A DNA stretch of 63,865 nucleotides, the filler included, from an uncultured Thermoplasmatales archaeon (GTDB taxonomy: Archaea; Thermoplasmatota; E2; DHVEG-1): assembly GCA_964517155.1 (NCBI GenBank). It is 5 parts of 5 records of this genome, joined end to end, with 100 filler letters (N's around TTAATTAATTAA, not from the genome) between each part and the next. Parts side by side here need not be neighbours in the genome. Positions count along the whole stretch, not along the records: positions 1 to 21,057 come from CAZFAZ010000001.1; 4 more parts are not named here. The stretch is one strand, 5' to 3'. A program made the position numbers. Shown here piece by piece: positions 6,001 to 15,000 of the stretch. Numbering within the stretch: the first letter of the stretch is position 1; the number at the start of each line of letters is the position of its first letter.

Positions 6001-9000
6001 AAGTTGGTCTGTTTCCATTTCTATCAGATACTATTAATACTATTTGATAGTAATTTATAAATATTTCTTTTCTCTGGGGTGAAGTACTATCAAAATAAAT
6101 TTTAATCTTTTTGGTTTCATATTTTTTATAATAATGACATTTCAAAACATCTATCATACAACATAATAAGACTCTTAATAAAAATACATCAAAAAATAGT
6201 ATTTGCCTAACTTAAAATACACAAATACTTTTTATCTATTTAACAAACAGCATAGAATATTTACATTTCTCAGCGATTTTCTTTTTAACGTTTTTTACAG
6301 GAAAACCTAGCATCCCTTTCTTTTTTTGTTCTTGACCTAGTATTACTAGTTGTGCCTTGATTTTTTCTGCTTTTTTTACGATTTGTTTTTCAAGGCTGCC
6401 TTTAACAATTTCAACATTTATTTGTTTTTTTTGCATTTCTTCTACAAATTTTTGTGCCTGGATTTTTAGTTCTTTTTCTGTTTGTTTAGTTGATCTTTTC
6501 CCTTGCTCATCAACTTGTACGCAATCTTCTGTATCTACAATATATAATATTTGCAAACTCCAGCCTAAAGTCTCTGCAAGTTTTATGCTAATTTGAGATA
6601 TTTTTTGATTTGACACAAGGTTTGAACAGATAGCTAGTATTTTCTGACTGGTTCCTTTGCCTACCACCCATATTGGTATATTTACTTCTTCAAAAAGCCT
6701 ATAGTTTAGAATACATCCTTTCCTAAACCCCATTAAAAGTAAATCATATTTTTTGCTTCTTATTTCTTCTTTTATTGCATCTGTATATTCTTGCTCAACT
6801 ATTTTCTCAGAGATTTCTTTGTTTTTAAATATTTTTTTTATTTCTTGAAAAATTATTGTATCTGCTGATTGTTTTTGGTTTTCTATTAGTTCTTTTTTTG
6901 TCTCTTCAAGATTATATTCTGTTATATATGAACAAGATATTTTATTTGTTTGTTTTAGTGTTTTTTCGTCTATTATGTATAGTATTGTAATTTGACTTTT
7001 GAATTTCTCAGAAAGAGTAAGTGCTCTTTGTATTACTTGTTTTGAATAAAATTCTGATGATATCGGCATCAATATATTTCTAAACATTTTTTTCACCTTT
7101 TTTTATAATCCTAATACACCTTTCCAGTAGAATATTGCAACTGAAAATACTATTGTTATACATACTATATTTGCAAGCACTCCAGTTTTAAACAAATCTT
7201 TTGTTGTAAAATAGCCTGATGAATAAGTTATTGCATTTCCAGGTGTAGCAATCACAAGCATAAATGCTAAACCACCGCTTAGTGCTATGAGCATCGCTGA
7301 AAGAAGCGGACTTATACCAGATACAGCTGTTGAAATTGAAAAACCTACAGGTAAAAGTATTGCTACGGCACCAGTGTTTGACATTATCTCTGTTAAAAAA
7401 ATTGTTACAACAATTAATCCAAGAATTACCAAGTACGGGTTTTCACCTATAACATAAAAAAGTGCTTTAGCTATCCAGTCTGCTGCACCTGTTTGAATAA
7501 TGCCCATGCCAAGTGTTATAGCCCCGCCATAAAGTAAAATAATTCCCCAGGGAACACGTCTTTCAACATCTTTCCAGCTGAGACAACCTGTCATAAAAAG
7601 TAAAACTCCACCTAGTAGTGCAATAACTGCAAGGCCAAAATACATGTATTGTGAAAAGAAAACCCAGAGGCATAAAGTTAACATAAATATTACTATGACT
7701 TTTATCTGATTTATACCTAGTTTTCCAGCTTTTATAACCTGATTACTTATTACTTTTTTTGCAAGTGCTATATCTTTTATTTCAATAGGAAAAGAAAATT
7801 GAAGTATAAGCCATACAAGAGGCAAAGCAATAAAAACAACAGGCATAGAGTAAATCATCCAATCTAAAAAAGTAACAGTAATGCCTTCCTCTGCAAGAAG
7901 ACCTATCGCAAGCGGGTTGCGTGCACCACCTATAAGAGTTCCCAAGCTTCCAATAGAGCAGCCATAGGCAACACTTAACATGCTGATTTTACCAAAATTA
8001 CTTTGCTTTGGAACTATTTTCATAGCAATCAAAATAGAAGTAATTATTGGTAAAAATAATGCTGCTACTCCATGTTCAGGCATTACAAAAGATAAAAAGG
8101 CACATGAACACATAATGCCAAAAGTAAAAAAACGAGGAGAACTTTCAAAATAGCTTAGAAATTTTAAAGCTATTCTTTTATGAAGGCCGTGTTTTTCAAT
8201 TGCAGCTGCAATTATAAATGCACCAATTAAAAAAAACACTGCTTGATTTCCAAATGATGAAAAAACATCTTTTGGCTGCATTAACCCAAGCAGTGGCTGT
8301 AAAATCATTATAAGAAGCCCTGTTACAGGTAATGGAATTGGTTCTGTAATCCATAGTATTACTGCCATTAAAAGTATACCTATCATGAGTTTACCTGAGA
8401 AAGGCAAACCAGCAGGTGTCGGTAAAAAATAAAAAATTACAATTATTAAAAAAGCAAGTAAAATAAAGAAAATATCTTTTTTTGAAAGAATTTTTTCTTT
8501 TTTATCTTCTTTATCGTTATTCATTTTAATTTATTTTCCTGTTCCTGTAAAGTTTTTTATCTACAACATTTATCATTTTTTCAAGTGATTCTTTTGGCAT
8601 TTCTAAGTATTTGTGTATCTTTTTAATATTTTTCCAAGGGTTTGAAAGTATTTCATTATAGTTTACTGTAAGATAATCTATATCTTTTCTTTCTTGCATT
8701 ATTTTTTTAATCATATAATTAAGTTTGATAAATATTTCACGTGTTTCATTGTGTTTTTCGTCTTTTTTACCCATCATTTTTTCCATTGAATAAAGTATTT
8801 CATCTATGTTTCGCTCAGAGTATATTATTTTGTATTTTGCTTCTGGAAGAAATTTTATACCATAACATGTGATTTTGATAAATTTTCCTTTGTATTTTTC
8901 AAATGGAAATGTTTTGTTTATAAGCCGGTTTATGATTTTTCCGCCTTCAAGTTCATAGTATCCTTTTGGATTGTTTTCATCAGGTTTTCGTGTATCATCA

Positions 9001-12000: not shown

Positions 12001-15000
12001 CTGAATTTACCATTTAGAAGTATCCCTCCTTTTTTCTGTCTTCCATCGCAGTTTCAGATCGCTTGTCATCTGCTCTGCTTCCGCGCTCTGAGCTTCTGAT
12101 TTGTGCTACTTCGTTTACGATTTCTTTAAGGGTTTTTGCATTTGATTTTGTAAGTCCTGTGCAGGTCATATCTCCTATTGTTCTGCAGCGAACTTGCATT
12201 TCTTTTGCATTTTTCTTTTCTGTTTCATCCATATTTATGTATTCTGTATATGCTAGTATTACTCCATCACGTATTATGCATTTTCTTTTATGTGAAAAGT
12301 ATAGTTTTGGGATATCTATGTTTTCTTTTAGTATATATTGCCATACATCCATTTCTGTCCAGTTGCTGAGTGGAAATACTCTGAAGTGTTCTCCAACGTT
12401 ATATCGTCCGTTATATAAATCCCATAATTCTGGTCTTTGGTTTTTTGGATCCCATTCTCCAAACTCGTTTCTATGTGAAAAGAATCTTTCTTTTGCTCTT
12501 GCTTTTTCTTCGTCGCGTCTTCCACCACCTATACAGCAGTCGAATTTGTTTTCTTCTATTGTATCAAGCAGTGTTTTTGTTTGCAGGTAGTTTCTACTTG
12601 CATATTTGCCTTTTTCTTCTGTTACTCTGCCTTTTTTTATTGAGTCTTCTACGCTTCCAACAACTAGTCTTGCCCCTAGTTTTTTTACATAATTGTCTCT
12701 GTACTCAAGGGTTTCTGGAAAATTGTGTCCCGTGTCTATATGCAGGAAGGGGAAAGGCATTTTTGCAGGATAAAATGCTTTTTTGGCTATATGGCCCATT
12801 ACAATTGAGTCTTTTCCTCCTGAAAATAGTAGTGCTGGTCTTTGGAATTGTGCTGCTACTTCTCGCATTATAAATATTGCTTCTGCTTCTAGTTTGTCAA
12901 GATGTGTTAAATTATAGTGTGTCATTTTTAAGCCTTCCATGTTTGTTTTTTTATTCTAAATAACCTAGTGATTTAAGTTTGTTTTTCACTCTTTTTTCAT
13001 CGTCTTTTGAAAATGCTTCGTCTTTTTCTTCAGAGCCTGATATTACTTCTCTTAGAACATAAGTCACATATGAAGAAAGGGATGTAAATCCGGTTCCTTC
13101 TATCCTTTTTTTAATCTTGTTTGCAAGGGGCATTGGAATAGATATTGTTGTAAATTTATTTTCTTCCGTCATAATTATACCTAACTACATTTCATTATAT
13201 TTAATTAAATGTAATTATATATCATTACACTCTGTTATATATAATTTACGAAAAAAAAGAAGGAGAAAATTGCTAAATTAAAATCCTCTTAATTTTTTAT
13301 AATACGATATTTAAGATAAACAATAATAAACAATACAATTACTATCAAAACAGTAGGGAGGAAAAAATCAAACGGAACAAAAAAAAGAGCAATAACAAGT
13401 GAAAAAATCAAAACCATAAAAAGTACAATAAAGTTTTTTAATGCTTTTGATTCAAATTTTATTTCTGCAACTCCTTTATTCTCCGATTCTTTTAAAAAAT
13501 CAACTACCTCTTTTTCTTTTTCGCTGAGTTCAACATCTTTTTCTTCTAATTCAGTTGTTTTTCCTTCTTTTTCTGCTTTTAATCCTTTTAAAAAATTTTT
13601 ATAATTTTCAAGATTATCAAAAATTAATGGACTTCCACGATACCCGCAATCTCTACATACATCTCTTGAAGTATAACCAGTTATAACTCCATCTCTCAAA
13701 CGTCCTTGAAATATTCTTCTACTTCCACAGTTTGGACATGCCGTAATCTCCAATTTGTTATTTCACCTACATTTATTTGATAATAAAAAAACAAATAATA
13801 GCTTTGCTATTACCCCACTGTAATTATTTGGGTGAAATCTGTGAAAAAAAGCGATGTTAAAGTTGCAGTTATAAGAATTGAAGGGACAAACTGCGAGCAA
13901 GAGTCATTTGATGCATTCAAAAGACTTGGTGCAAAACCTGAGTTTGTACATCTTAAACAACTTTTACATATTGATTGCACTAATACTGAAAAAAGAGATA
14001 TTTCTGATTACCAATGCATTATGATACCTGGAGGTTTTTCAGCAGGCGACTATATTCGCGCAGGTGCTATTTTTGCAGCTAGAATGAAAAGCAAGTTAGG
14101 CAGCGATCTTAAAGAATTTGTAAAAGATGAATATCCAATACTTGGCATATGTAACGGCTTTCAGGTTTTAACAGAGCTGGGGCTGCTTCCAGGTGTTAAA
14201 GAAATTATGACCAGCGTTCCTGATGCATGTTTAAATATTAATGATAGTAATCGTTTTGAATGCCGTCCAACCTTTTTAAAACATGAAAATAATGGCAAAT
14301 GCGTTTTTACAAGTAAACTTGCTAAAGGAGAAATTAGACTTATTCCTAGTGCTCATGCAGAAGGAAAACTTTTGTTTCCTTTAGATAAACAAGAAGAATA
14401 TCTTAAAAAATTAGAAGAAAACGATCAGGTTGTTTTCCGTTATGTAGATGAAAACGGAGAATATGCAGGTTATCCTTGGAATCCAAATGGTTCAATCAGC
14501 AATCTTGCAGGAATTTGCAATCATATCGGAAATGTCTTTGGTATGATGCCTCATCCTGAAAGAACTTTTTATCGCCATCAACATCCAGATTGGGTTCAAA
14601 ATGGTCTCGATAAAAACATAGGGGATGGAATGGCTATTTTTGAGTCTGTTTTGGATTATACTTGTAAAAGGTTCTGAAAGTTATGCCAAGTGTTGCCACT
14701 TGTATCCTAATGGATGAAAAAGGGCAAATTCTTATTCTTAAGCGGAGCAATAAAGTTGGAACTTACAAAGGATTCTGGAGTGGTGTTGCAGGTTATGTTG
14801 AAGAAGGTGAAAAGCCTATTGATACTGCATTTAAAGAAATACGTGAAGAAACAGGTCTTAACAATAATGATGTTGAGTTAATAAAAACTATCGAGCCTAT
14901 CGAAGTTACAGATTTTTATGAAGGAAAAAGATACGATTGGAAGATTTATCCTTTTTTGTTTAAAACTGGAAAAAAAAGTAAAGTACAAATAGACTGGGAG

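Follow-up and report, generated by a model that had tools for sequence, protein, structure and literature searches.

The window analyzed here, a 63,865-nucleotide stretch of DNA from an uncultured Thermoplasmatales archaeon, contains eight tightly packed genes on the minus strand (positions 6236 to 13172). From upstream, they encode a CopG/RHH regulator, CysD, CysN, a DHH protein, CysC, a sulfotransferase, a DASS transporter, and a Usp protein. The first-pass annotation had placed a PAPS operon of six genes here, from cysD to the DASS gene, and all six are present on that strand with profile matches, spaced by 0 to 23 bp. The operon is larger than first noted: the CopG/RHH gene precedes cysD by 10 bp, and the Usp gene lies 6 bp past the transporter gene.

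Judging by homology, the identities of the enzymes are established. CysD (12014 to 12940), the small subunit of sulfate adenylyltransferase, scores 418 bits against NF009214 (cut-off 413) and 405.1 bits against TIGR02039 (cut-off 396.6) and matches PF01507 (E = 2e-43). The GTPase subunit, CysN (10742 to 12013), scores 545.5 bits against TIGR02034 (cut-off 336.1), matches GTP_EFTU (E = 5.8e-44), and is not fused to a kinase domain. The APS kinase that would convert APS to PAPS, CysC (9128 to 9736), matches PF01583 (E = 3.5e-67), NF003013 (283.6 bits; cut-off 163), and TIGR00455 (260.6 bits; cut-off 138.7). It is followed by a 192-amino-acid, cytosolic "mini" sulfotransferase (8526 to 9104; PF00685, E = 6e-9; PF13469, E = 2e-8). 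The next protein (7103 to 8524) belongs to the DASS family of Na+-coupled anion symporters (TIGR00785, 308.9 bits with a cut-off of 198.6; PF00939, E = 1.2e-72) and is probably a sulfate importer. The final gene (6236 to 7096) encodes a tandem Usp-domain protein (PF00582 in two stretches, E = 2.5e-20), which may regulate the transporter.

The DHH/DHHA1 protein (9744 to 10736) had been called a PAP phosphatase by inference, and this assignment now has a firmer basis in full-length homology and a fold match to an assayed enzyme, MtPAPP, which points to the conversion of PAP to AMP and phosphate. Its family profile aligned with MtPAPP (PDB 8a8k) across residues 12 to 325 (E = 1.1e-56), and 8a8k was also the top Foldseek match of the predicted model (pLDDT 92.9; E = 3e-27, TM 0.81/0.84, 31% identity). 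Nine residues are invariant in 22 orthologues (H16, H17, D19, D21, D68, D89, H90, H91, and D140), and in the alignment they coincide with the Mn ligands given for MtPAPP in PMC10322725. According to the same text, MtPAPP is PAP specific and Mn stimulated and releases 50 umol of phosphate per min per mg, and DHH-type PAP phosphatases are known from 168 archaea.

What is the PAPS for? Another earlier claim, that the genome lacks a sulfite reductase, held up: NIR_SIR (PF01077) had no matches in this genome (12 of 14 controls were positive), nor in any of 118 genomes of the order, including 43 of high quality (11 of 14 controls were positive). To our knowledge, this domain is common to Fsr and every siroheme sulfite reductase. 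We also found no CysH in the genome, where the PAPS_reduct matches were CysD and GuaA-, ThiI-, and TtcA-like ORFs, and no AprA-like PAPS reductase, as all 12 FAD_binding_2 matches cover just positions 1 to 45 of 414. Since neither this organism nor the rest of the order seems to have a sulfite reductase, the PAPS should serve sulfation only, and the proposal that the operon supplies sulfo-transfer rather than cysteine synthesis is supported.

Alternatively, assimilatory sulfate reduction might start with this operon, with atypical enzymes encoded elsewhere reducing PAPS to sulfite and then sulfide. There is a precedent: in Methanothermococcus thermolithotrophicus, the same trio of ATPS, APSK, and PAPP is assimilatory, PAPS is handled by a PAPS reductase resembling APS reductase, followed by Fsr, and no sulfotransferase appears in the available part of that report (PMC10322725). 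The PAP phosphatase there is from the same family as the one in the window and also accompanies sulfate-activation genes. In addition, our genome is just 90.8% complete, and Jin et al. used "assimilatory sulfate reduction" in the title of the paper on their related cluster (PMC8268124). However, the order-wide absence of NIR_SIR, the lack of CysH and of a full-length AprA-like flavoprotein in the genome, and the sulfotransferase gene within the operon itself make this explanation most improbable. With the reductive enzymes missing and a sulfotransferase inside, the operon instead corresponds to "route 1c" of PMC10322725; the same source proposes DASS and SulP carriers for sulfate.

The operon for PAPS-dependent sulfation has counterparts among both bacteria and archaea. 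Dedicated sulfation systems of bacteria include NodPQ-NodH, RaxPQ-RaxST, and the mycobacterial CysDNC-Stf0. In each of these, a private CysD/CysN/CysC supply of PAPS feeds a linked sulfotransferase; the product is a sulfate ester, and cysteine synthesis is separate. By description rather than by sequence, the window's operon shares this logic, but it has an archaeal host, a DHH instead of a CysQ-type PAP phosphatase, and a built-in transporter and RHH regulator; its sulfotransferase, again by description and not sequence, is much smaller and from another subfamily.

Among archaea, Jin et al. 2021 described a copG-ATPS-pApase-(phosphodiesterase)-APSK cluster in P. yayanosii (PYCH_17520-17560) and also in F. 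placidus, Aciduliprofundum boonei, A. pernix, and I. hospitalis; the paper places a sulfotransferase gene next to it "in other archaea" (PMC8268124). Both that cluster and ours open with a CopG-type regulator; a sulfate-activating enzyme, a PAP phosphatase of the DHH type, and APS kinase come next. The A. boonei CopG shares 66% identity with the regulator in the window. PyapApase is described there as NrnA-like, and it is by this description that we set it beside the window's DHH protein. Our operon lacks the type I phosphodiesterase, contains the sulfotransferase, DASS, and Usp genes, and has CysD/CysN in place of the single-chain ATP sulfurylase found at that position in 33 of 80 related loci. 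Given this published cluster and the published DHH PAP phosphatase (PMC8268124, PMC10322725), the PAPS system is not new, contrary to the first-pass annotation.

We fetched 80 related loci for comparison. RHH genes are present in 60 of them, CysC in 44, DHH in 42 (41 of which also have CysC), and Sat in 33. The DASS gene follows the sulfotransferase gene in 28 loci, and in 29 loci the Usp gene comes next after the DASS gene. In both domains, genes for nucleotide sugars sit next to the module: GlmU-like genes (24 loci) and GlmS (22) in archaea, and Ugd (23) in bacteria; a glycan flippase (11 loci) or a dehydratase (10 loci) also lies beside it. Within each lineage, this proximity to sugar genes may reflect inherited synteny.

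Within the order, sulfotransferases and the PAP phosphatase are almost universal: Sulfotransfer_1 was found in 111 of 118 genomes and the PAP phosphatase in 93, and many of the other 25 genomes are incomplete. That Sulfotransfer_1 is widespread in the order thus agrees with the earlier claim, while the count differs from the 97 of 117 given then. The idea that a sulfation set marks the order, on the other hand, has to be given up. The small sulfotransferase was found in 74 of the 118 genomes (many of the other 44 are incomplete) and, outside the order, in 38 of the 338 genomes sampled from the phylum; 93 of these 338 have Sulfotransfer_1. This highly conserved family of 2645 homologues also has members in other Thermoplasmatota, Asgard archaea, Aminicenantes, and Cloacimonadota. 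Identity across the two domains is 56 to 71%, which would be unusual for an enzyme that acts on species-specific glycans or lipids.

All structural neighbors of the small sulfotransferase's model (pLDDT 85.9) are PAPS-dependent sulfotransferases. The best matches were TPST1/2 (PDB 5wrj and 3ap1-3; Z = 11.6 to 12.1), with 165 to 172 residues aligned at an rmsd of 3.1 to 3.6, followed by Teg12/StaL (Z = 10.9 to 11.2) and SULTs (Z of about 10). The lead of TPST over Teg12/StaL, about 1 Z, is within the range of a tie for VIA-align. The small sulfotransferase and TPST1/2 have a PAPS loop of the RSGT type in common, yet they are just 14 to 18% identical. TPSTs, which are membrane proteins of the Golgi, are also longer by about 100 residues. 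No membrane segment is visible in the small sulfotransferase's sequence. Across 22 diverse members, 54 columns are invariant and none of them is a histidine; the absence of an invariant histidine is a trait of carboxylate-base enzymes such as TPST.

The 73-amino-acid protein encoded by the first gene (12951 to 13172) is a putative RHH protein. The protein itself has no significant Pfam match, and RHH_1 reached just E = 0.011, for a bacterial member of the family; the sources name its relatives CopG or Arc/MetJ. The DNA-binding half diverges across homologues, whereas the C-terminal tail, ...ALGY[LMI][DE], is invariant (L66, L69, G70, and Y71). Upstream of the gene are a putative operator of six head-to-tail 10-bp units with core TAATKA (13172 to 13227, minus strand) and a TATA-like box (AAATTATATATAA; 13234 to 13246, minus strand) of the presumed operon promoter; a TTTATATA-like box is at an equal distance in many related upstream regions. 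A four-unit pattern with up to one mismatch gave three overlapping matches at the array, none elsewhere in the window, and none in 100 shuffles, and it was unique to the array across the 1.585-Mb genome (a reversed control gave 0). TRF reported a period of 10 with 4.9 to 7.6 copies. Among related loci, 28 of 36 of archaeal type and 0 of 23 of bacterial type have at least three units ahead of the RHH gene. We infer that the CopG/RHH protein binds this array. Because the repeats begin just past the TATA-like box and continue as far as the RHH start codon, binding would repress the operon. The unique six-unit operator array and the invariant tail of the regulator are new.

The tail also raises another possibility, which is that the small sulfotransferase acts on protein: it might sulfate the invariant tyrosine of the tail, or bind the tail as a co-repressor, so that PAPS supply feeds back on transcription of the operon. 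Consistent with this, only the regulator and sulfotransferase genes stay side by side in archaea and bacteria alike, and some loci (L016, L018, and L039) hold only this pair. Both genes occur in 70 genomes of the order, the enzyme alone in 4, and the regulator alone in 3 (two contig ends and one decayed operon). The tail is conserved while the DNA-binding half is not, the seven top structural matches are tyrosylprotein sulfotransferases, and the missing histidine fits as well. However, genes of one operon are expected to co-occur anyway, the structural lead is a tie, and a paralogue with the same tail (in contig C90 of this genome and in genome G089) precedes an Lhr-type helicase gene, away from any sulfotransferase. 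Also, an entire PAPS pathway would be wasteful for a regulatory mark alone, and the P. yayanosii cluster has copG and, in the accessible text, no identified sulfotransferase (PMC8268124). On balance, we consider this reading very unlikely.

The first-pass annotation had preferred archaeal isoprenoid membrane lipids as the acceptor. A UbiA gene (16575 to 17465) does lie on the same contig, 7.5 kb away, and UbiA genes adjoin other sulfotransferases of this genome. However, divergently oriented purQ and NUDIX genes separate the operon from the UbiA gene, and the sulfotransferase lacks a visible membrane segment. The occurrence of its family in Asgard archaea, Aminicenantes, and Cloacimonadota also argues against an archaeal lipid: the orthologues from Aminicenantes/Acidobacteriota and Cloacimonadota have a median identity of 62% to the operon's enzyme, which is the level seen between the archaeal ones, and we know of no archaeal ether lipids made by these bacteria. 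We therefore view a lipid acceptor for this enzyme as very unlikely. A sugar, nucleotide sugar, or glycan precursor is our tentative first choice, and another small soluble metabolite is almost as likely; a protein tyrosine seems improbable, and other acceptors account for the rest. The only experimentally assigned archaeal sulfotransferases that we found in the literature are Agl30 and Agl31 of Halobacterium salinarum, which act on N-glycans; one of them is cytosolic and modifies uronic acids of the lipid-linked glycan (PMC11980604, in the part available). By description, not sequence, their glycan acceptor can be compared with the nucleotide-sugar genes that adjoin our module, but placement in a PAPS-synthesis operon is not reported for them in that text, whereas the window's enzyme is inside one.

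Overall, the genes very likely form a self-contained operon for PAPS-dependent sulfation, one that probably represses itself. Sulfate would enter through the DASS carrier, which the Usp protein may gate; CysD/CysN would form APS, and CysC would phosphorylate it to PAPS. The small sulfotransferase would then transfer the sulfuryl group to an acceptor that is soluble or lies at the membrane face, and the MtPAPP-type enzyme would remove the by-product PAP, which is inhibitory, by hydrolysis into AMP and phosphate. The CopG/RHH protein would bind the six repeats. In this scheme, we infer which ion the carrier transports, that the regulator is a repressor, and what the acceptor is.

The same pool of PAPS would also feed the genome's other sulfotransferases beside UbiA and radical-SAM genes, whose neighbors we confirmed. 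The earlier list is confirmed in part: neither three Pfam six-frame searches nor phmmer recovered the fragment on contig C85. Contig C10 encodes two, of 325 amino acids (2431 to 3408) and 243 amino acids (28899 to 29630); the latter lacks the N-terminal PAPS loop and adjoins two transposases. Contigs C57 and C58 carry collinear copies of Sulfotransfer_4. A candidate on contig C40 (15517 to 16338), preceded by four UbiA genes, has no Pfam match; the Atlas clusters nearest to it resemble sulfotransferases. A lipid acceptor is conceivable only for the sulfotransferases beside UbiA genes. Finally, a sulfotransferase fragment at the end of contig C19 was absent from the earlier list.

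The operon lies in the first contig (window positions 1-21057) and consists of eight ORFs in series on the minus strand, with intergenic gaps of 0-23 bp. It begins with a putative CopG/RHH regulator of 73 amino acids (12951-13172), followed by CysD (12014-12940; 308 amino acids; 418 bits to NF009214, whose cut-off is 413) and CysN (10742-12013; 423 amino acids; 545.5 bits to TIGR02034, cut-off 336.1). The genes for CysD and CysN abut, and both subunits score above the cut-offs of equivalog or subfamily models. Then come a DHH protein (9744-10736; 330 amino acids), the APS kinase CysC (9128-9736; 202 amino acids; 260.6 bits to TIGR00455, cut-off 138.7; E = 3.5e-67 to PF01583), a sulfotransferase (8526-9104; 192 amino acids; 36.1 bits to Sulfotransfer_1, PF00685, cut-off 22), a DASS carrier (7103-8524; 473 amino acids; 308.9 bits to TIGR00785, cut-off 198.6), and a tandem Usp protein (6236-7096; 286 amino acids). 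The first-pass annotation had described six of these genes. Because curated models support the enzymes, with scores above their cut-offs, those six are real; the unit is two genes longer than was given. The DASS carrier may import sulfate, as suggested by its operon context only; members of this family also transport di- and tricarboxylates. A scan for sigma-70 promoters and terminators gave sites no more numerous than in shuffled sequences, and its model is not applicable to archaea. The window is contigs C1-C5 with N spacers at 21058-21157, 29597-29696, 56296-56395, and 60885-60984, rather than one contig, so adjacency across the spacers is meaningless.

In a scan of one genome per species, 428 stretches encode the small sulfotransferase. 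Around the best 80 of these 428, we found RHH in 60 loci, CysC in 44, DHH in 42 (all archaeal), ATP sulfurylase in 33, Usp in 29, DASS in 28, CysN in 10, and CysD in 9. The usual gene order in Thermoplasmatota is RHH, Sat or CysD-CysN (in the same slot), DHH, CysC, sulfotransferase, DASS, and Usp. Asgard loci have the order RHH-Sat-DHH-sulfotransferase-CysC, and Aminicenantes loci have sulfotransferase-RHH, often then Sat-CysC, and then UDP-glucose dehydrogenase. Archaeal loci run on into GlmU-like genes (24 loci) and GlmS genes (22 loci), as does the window at 1-4108, and a glycan flippase and a Polysacc_synt_2 dehydratase lie further on in 11 and 10 archaeal loci, respectively.

Several smaller features of these loci were also seen. 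Across loci L014-L092, the slot between RHH and DHH is filled either by a single-chain ATP sulfurylase (PF01747 plus PUA_2, about 375 amino acids; the 33 loci just counted) or by CysD-CysN (9-10 loci), with the flanking genes unchanged. At L040:12920-16228, in a related locus, the GlmS that adjoins the module has 1,102 amino acids and contains an intein that carries a LAGLIDADG domain and an HTH. Between the Usp and GlmU/GlmS genes of the window, at 4259-5833, there are two toxin-antitoxin-like pairs (ParE-like with DUF2683, and PIN_2 with a 74-amino-acid ORF); these look like an insertion into conserved synteny, because in relatives Usp adjoins GlmU/GlmS directly. The gene that immediately precedes the RHH gene on this strand (13289-13753) encodes a 154-amino-acid protein that belongs to no family, with a zinc ribbon at its N terminus and a hydrophobic segment at its C terminus. 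It recurs at that place in another genome, G011, and in 6 of the 80 loci.

By homology, the operon is a real and complete PAPS-sulfation unit of a published kind, ordinary in kind and with a published core. Jin et al. 2021 (PMC8268124) report a copG-ATPS-pApase-phosphodiesterase-APSK cluster in five archaea, with a sulfotransferase gene beside the cluster in others; they give aboo_0230-0235 as the cluster of Aciduliprofundum boonei T469. The copG, pApase, and APSK genes of that cluster are present in the window in the same order. The two differ in the ATP sulfurylase slot, which holds CysD/CysN in the window (the PF01747 enzyme being that of 33 of the 80 related loci), and a carrier, a Usp protein, and the small sulfotransferase are part of the window's unit. 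The system had been put forward as new, but both the core cluster and the DHH-type PAP phosphatase are already in print (PMC8268124 and PMC10322725). Sulfotransferases of archaeal N-glycans, Agl30/31, were assigned in 2025 (PMC11980604).

The DHH protein had been tentatively assigned as a PAP phosphatase, and this was right. A profile of 22 DHH orthologues matches 8a8k, the structure of the PAP phosphatase of Methanothermococcus thermolithotrophicus (MtPAPP), with E = 1.1e-56 in an alignment that covers residues 12-325 (of 328 positions); RecJ proteins come next, with E = 3e-6. The predicted structure (pLDDT 92.9) has the two-domain fold, DHH plus DHHA1 with a helical linker, and its top Foldseek match is again 8a8k (TM 0.81/0.84, rmsd 3.1), far ahead of RecJ and NrnA. 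Jespersen and Wagner 2023 (PMC10322725) give the manganese ligands of MtPAPP as His6, Asp8, Asp10, Asp57, His76, His77, and Asp127, and describe an activity that is specific for PAP and stimulated by manganese, with homologues in 168 archaea. The HHWDTDG and DHH stretches of our protein align with 8a8k, and H17, D19, D21, D68, H90, H91, and D140, which are invariant across the 22 orthologues, align with these ligands. Given the full-length homology, the fold match, and the conserved metal ligands, the DHH protein is predicted to be an MtPAPP-type PAP phosphatase that hydrolyzes the 3'-phosphate of PAP, which is already known biology.

We also considered whether the activated sulfate might be reduced. 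A six-frame search for NIR_SIR found no matches in this genome (12 of 14 controls were positive), in agreement with the first-pass annotation, which had worried that assimilatory genes might be missing from a bin that is 91% complete. That worry is removed because NIR_SIR is absent from all 118 genomes of the order that were searched, a set with 43 high-quality genomes; in this search, 11 of 14 controls were positive. The PAPS_reduct matches in this genome are CysD and three ORFs of the tRNA/GMP type. An AprA-like PAPS reductase of the methanogen type was not found by a FAD_binding_2 search of this genome, because all 12 matches span the first 45 of 414 positions only, which are N-terminal dinucleotide-binding motifs.

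Sulfotransfer_1 is found in 111 of the 118 genomes of the order (43 of 43 high-quality genomes), the PAP phosphatase in 93 (40 of 43), and the small sulfotransferase in 74 (33 of 43). In a sample of 401 genomes from the phylum that are at least 80% complete, 63 in the order and 338 outside it, the small sulfotransferase is present in 42 of 63 versus 38 of 338, and Sulfotransfer_1 in 61 of 63 versus 93 of 338. Within the class, two other families have the small sulfotransferase in 7 of 16 and 11 of 12 genomes, and three large families lack it (0 of 48, 0 of 39, and 0 of 62). Judging from these counts within and outside the order, its members are strongly characterized by sulfation without sulfite reduction, as had been proposed, but they are not alone in this. 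The order, which the first-pass annotation called Thermoprofundales/MBG-D, is abundant in anoxic marine sediments. Nearly all of its genomes that were searched carry sulfotransferases and the PAPS/PAP cycle, and none of them can reduce sulfite; therefore, these archaea spend ATP on sulfate esters. This bears on the surface chemistry or solutes of the order and on a small, non-reductive sink for sulfate. Our literature search found no paper that links Thermoprofundales or MBG-D with sulfotransferase, and the co-mention of Thermoprofundales and phosphoadenosine that we examined was unrelated. Sediment-free enrichments that contain both Thermoprofundales and Aminicenantales have been described (PMC13452462).

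The 192-amino-acid enzyme also matches Sulfotransfer_3 (PF13469; 35.2 bits, cut-off 27), and no NCBIfam model matches it. It has 2,645 homologues at E <= 0.001, and the best 120 of these 2,645 are all 62-97% identical to it and about 190 amino acids long. Among 22 diverse members, 54 columns are invariant. These include E15-R16-S17-G18-T19-S20 of the PAPS loop, as well as R98 and S106 of an R-x7-S stretch; we take these to be the 5'-phosphosulfate loop and the 3'-phosphate motif. The catalytic base of sulfotransferases is a histidine in cytosolic SULTs and a glutamate in TPST and the heparan enzymes. None of the 54 invariant columns is a histidine, and the invariant acidic residues are E15, D42, E51, E97, E108, D115, D141, and D182.

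The predicted structure of the enzyme (pLDDT 85.9) has the sulfotransferase fold. Foldseek found 65 matches at E <= 0.001, and among the matches listed, most are sulfotransferases and a few are guanylate kinases. VIA-align places sulfotransferases at Z of 10-12 over 160-172 residues: the top seven rows are TPST1/2 (Z of 11.6-12.1), Teg12/StaL reach 10.9-11.2, and SULTs are at about 10. As Z differences under 1 count as ties, the lead of TPST is a tie. A search of the PDB with the single sequence gave chance matches to dynamin only (E = 0.4), and a search with the profile gave weak matches to SULT and TPST proteins (best E = 0.0012). By language-model features, several of the nearest Atlas clusters consist largely of viral proteins (Uroviricota) about 190-216 amino acids long, which we treat as no more than a lead.

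The first-pass annotation had proposed that these sulfotransferases decorate isoprenoid lipids or glycans, and for the operon enzyme the distribution speaks against archaeal lipids. The best 80 of the 428 stretches come from Thermoplasmatota, Aminicenantes/Acidobacteriota, records labelled Eubacteriales, three Asgard archaea, and one member of the Cloacimonadota. Median identity is 62% within Thermoplasmatota (1,081 pairs) and also 62% between Thermoplasmatota and Aminicenantes/Acidobacteriota (799 pairs). In a rough neighbor-joining tree, which has neither branch support nor a reliable root, the bacterial sequences mostly fall together in a single cluster amid the archaeal ones. Because the enzyme differs no more between archaea and bacteria than within Thermoplasmatota, this sequence comparison implies that its acceptor must be present in both domains; archaeal ether lipids are therefore disfavored. 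The nucleotide-sugar genes beside the module in both domains give a modest hint of a sugar acceptor. The best leads to the acceptor are the cross-domain conservation of the enzyme, its companionship with RHH, and these sugar-nucleotide neighbors, and the small sulfotransferase family is a well-defined target in the search for a conserved sulfated product.

The regulator accompanies the small enzyme closely. Both are present in 70 genomes of the order and neither in 41; the enzyme is alone in 4 and the regulator in 3. We rejected the idea that the regulator-only genomes show independence from the sulfotransferase: in two of the three the gene lies at a contig end, and in the third the operon has decayed and its Sat is truncated. 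The decayed operon is in the single-contig genome G054 (L107:8323-9289), where an ATP sulfurylase that stops after 44 of 212 profile positions comes after the RHH gene, with none of DHH, CysC, and sulfotransferase beyond it. The RHH family has 4,122 members at E <= 0.001, and the named ones, including one from Aciduliprofundum boonei, are called CopG or Arc/MetJ regulators. The relatives named CopG thus tie the gene to the copG of the published archaeal cluster. The window's protein has no Pfam match at E < 0.02, and its homologue from Aminicenans matches RHH_1 weakly (E = 0.011).

The stretch that separates a TATA-like box from the start codon of the RHH gene holds six 10-bp units with the core TAATKA (13172-13227). 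No further copy of this pattern exists in the window, for which 100 shuffles gave 0, or in the 1.585-Mb genome. Of the related loci, 28 of 36 of the archaeal type have three or more units in front of the RHH gene, as do 0 of 23 of the bacterial type, and there are 26 matches elsewhere in 453 kb of those archaeal loci. We infer that the array is the putative operator of an RHH repressor. The operon is probably repressed by its own RHH protein; all functions given here are assigned by homology.

The N-terminal half of the regulator differs between archaea and bacteria, and the tail, ...SKEDEEKVKERL[KR]ALGY[LMI][DE], is almost fixed. We considered whether the 192-amino-acid enzyme might be a minimal prokaryotic protein-tyrosine sulfotransferase, with, as its target or docking partner, the invariant tail ...ALGY[LMI][DE] of the RHH protein that accompanies it in archaea and bacteria alike. 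This is a long shot. If true, a sulfated tyrosine of the regulator would signal the supply of PAPS to the promoter, and this would be the first gene switch in prokaryotes that is controlled by sulfation. A separate suggestion, that the tail is specific to the sulfation operon, was rejected: a paralogue with the same tail (...ALGYLD) is encoded in this genome at C90:11508-11723 (L106), directly upstream of a gene for a 946-amino-acid Lhr-type helicase (DEAD, DEAD_assoc, and WH_Lhr). The paralogue is also found at L108:6989-7219, with the same pairing in G089. Therefore, the tail belongs to the regulator family more widely than to sulfation.

Finally, other sulfotransferases of this genome lie beside UbiA or radical-SAM genes, as the first-pass annotation had noted and as the neighbors on contigs C10, C57/C58, and C40 bear out. 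For these enzymes, a prenylated acceptor is plausible. On C10, the sulfotransferase at 28899-29630 lacks the N-terminal loop and is near UbiA, radical-SAM, C39-peptidase, and methyltransferase genes and two transposases; the one at 2431-3408 is among MiaB-like and B12-radical-SAM genes. Contigs C57 and C58 (7,431 and 7,421 bases) are collinear, and their Sulfotransfer_4 copies, which adjoin UbiA, methyltransferase, AMP-binding, and radical-SAM genes, resemble each other closely without being identical (390 of 482 self bits); the explanation is either duplication or a bin that mixes two strains. Contig C19 ends in a sulfotransferase fragment, and the fragment reported earlier on C85 was not found in sequence searches of the genome. 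On C40, the 273-amino-acid protein at 15517-16338 has no Pfam match, has a P-loop-like CRSGST motif, and is nearest to Sulfotransfer_5/_3 among Atlas clusters (0.95-0.96); we treat its likeness to sulfotransferases as a lead only. Its gene follows four UbiA prenyltransferase paralogues in a row, and the run with this gene included spans C40:11446-16338 (L112:447-5339). At L102:1118-7482, which is on C10, the 325-amino-acid sulfotransferase is embedded between the MiaB-like radical-SAM gene and three B12-binding radical-SAM genes, in what looks like a small modification cluster.
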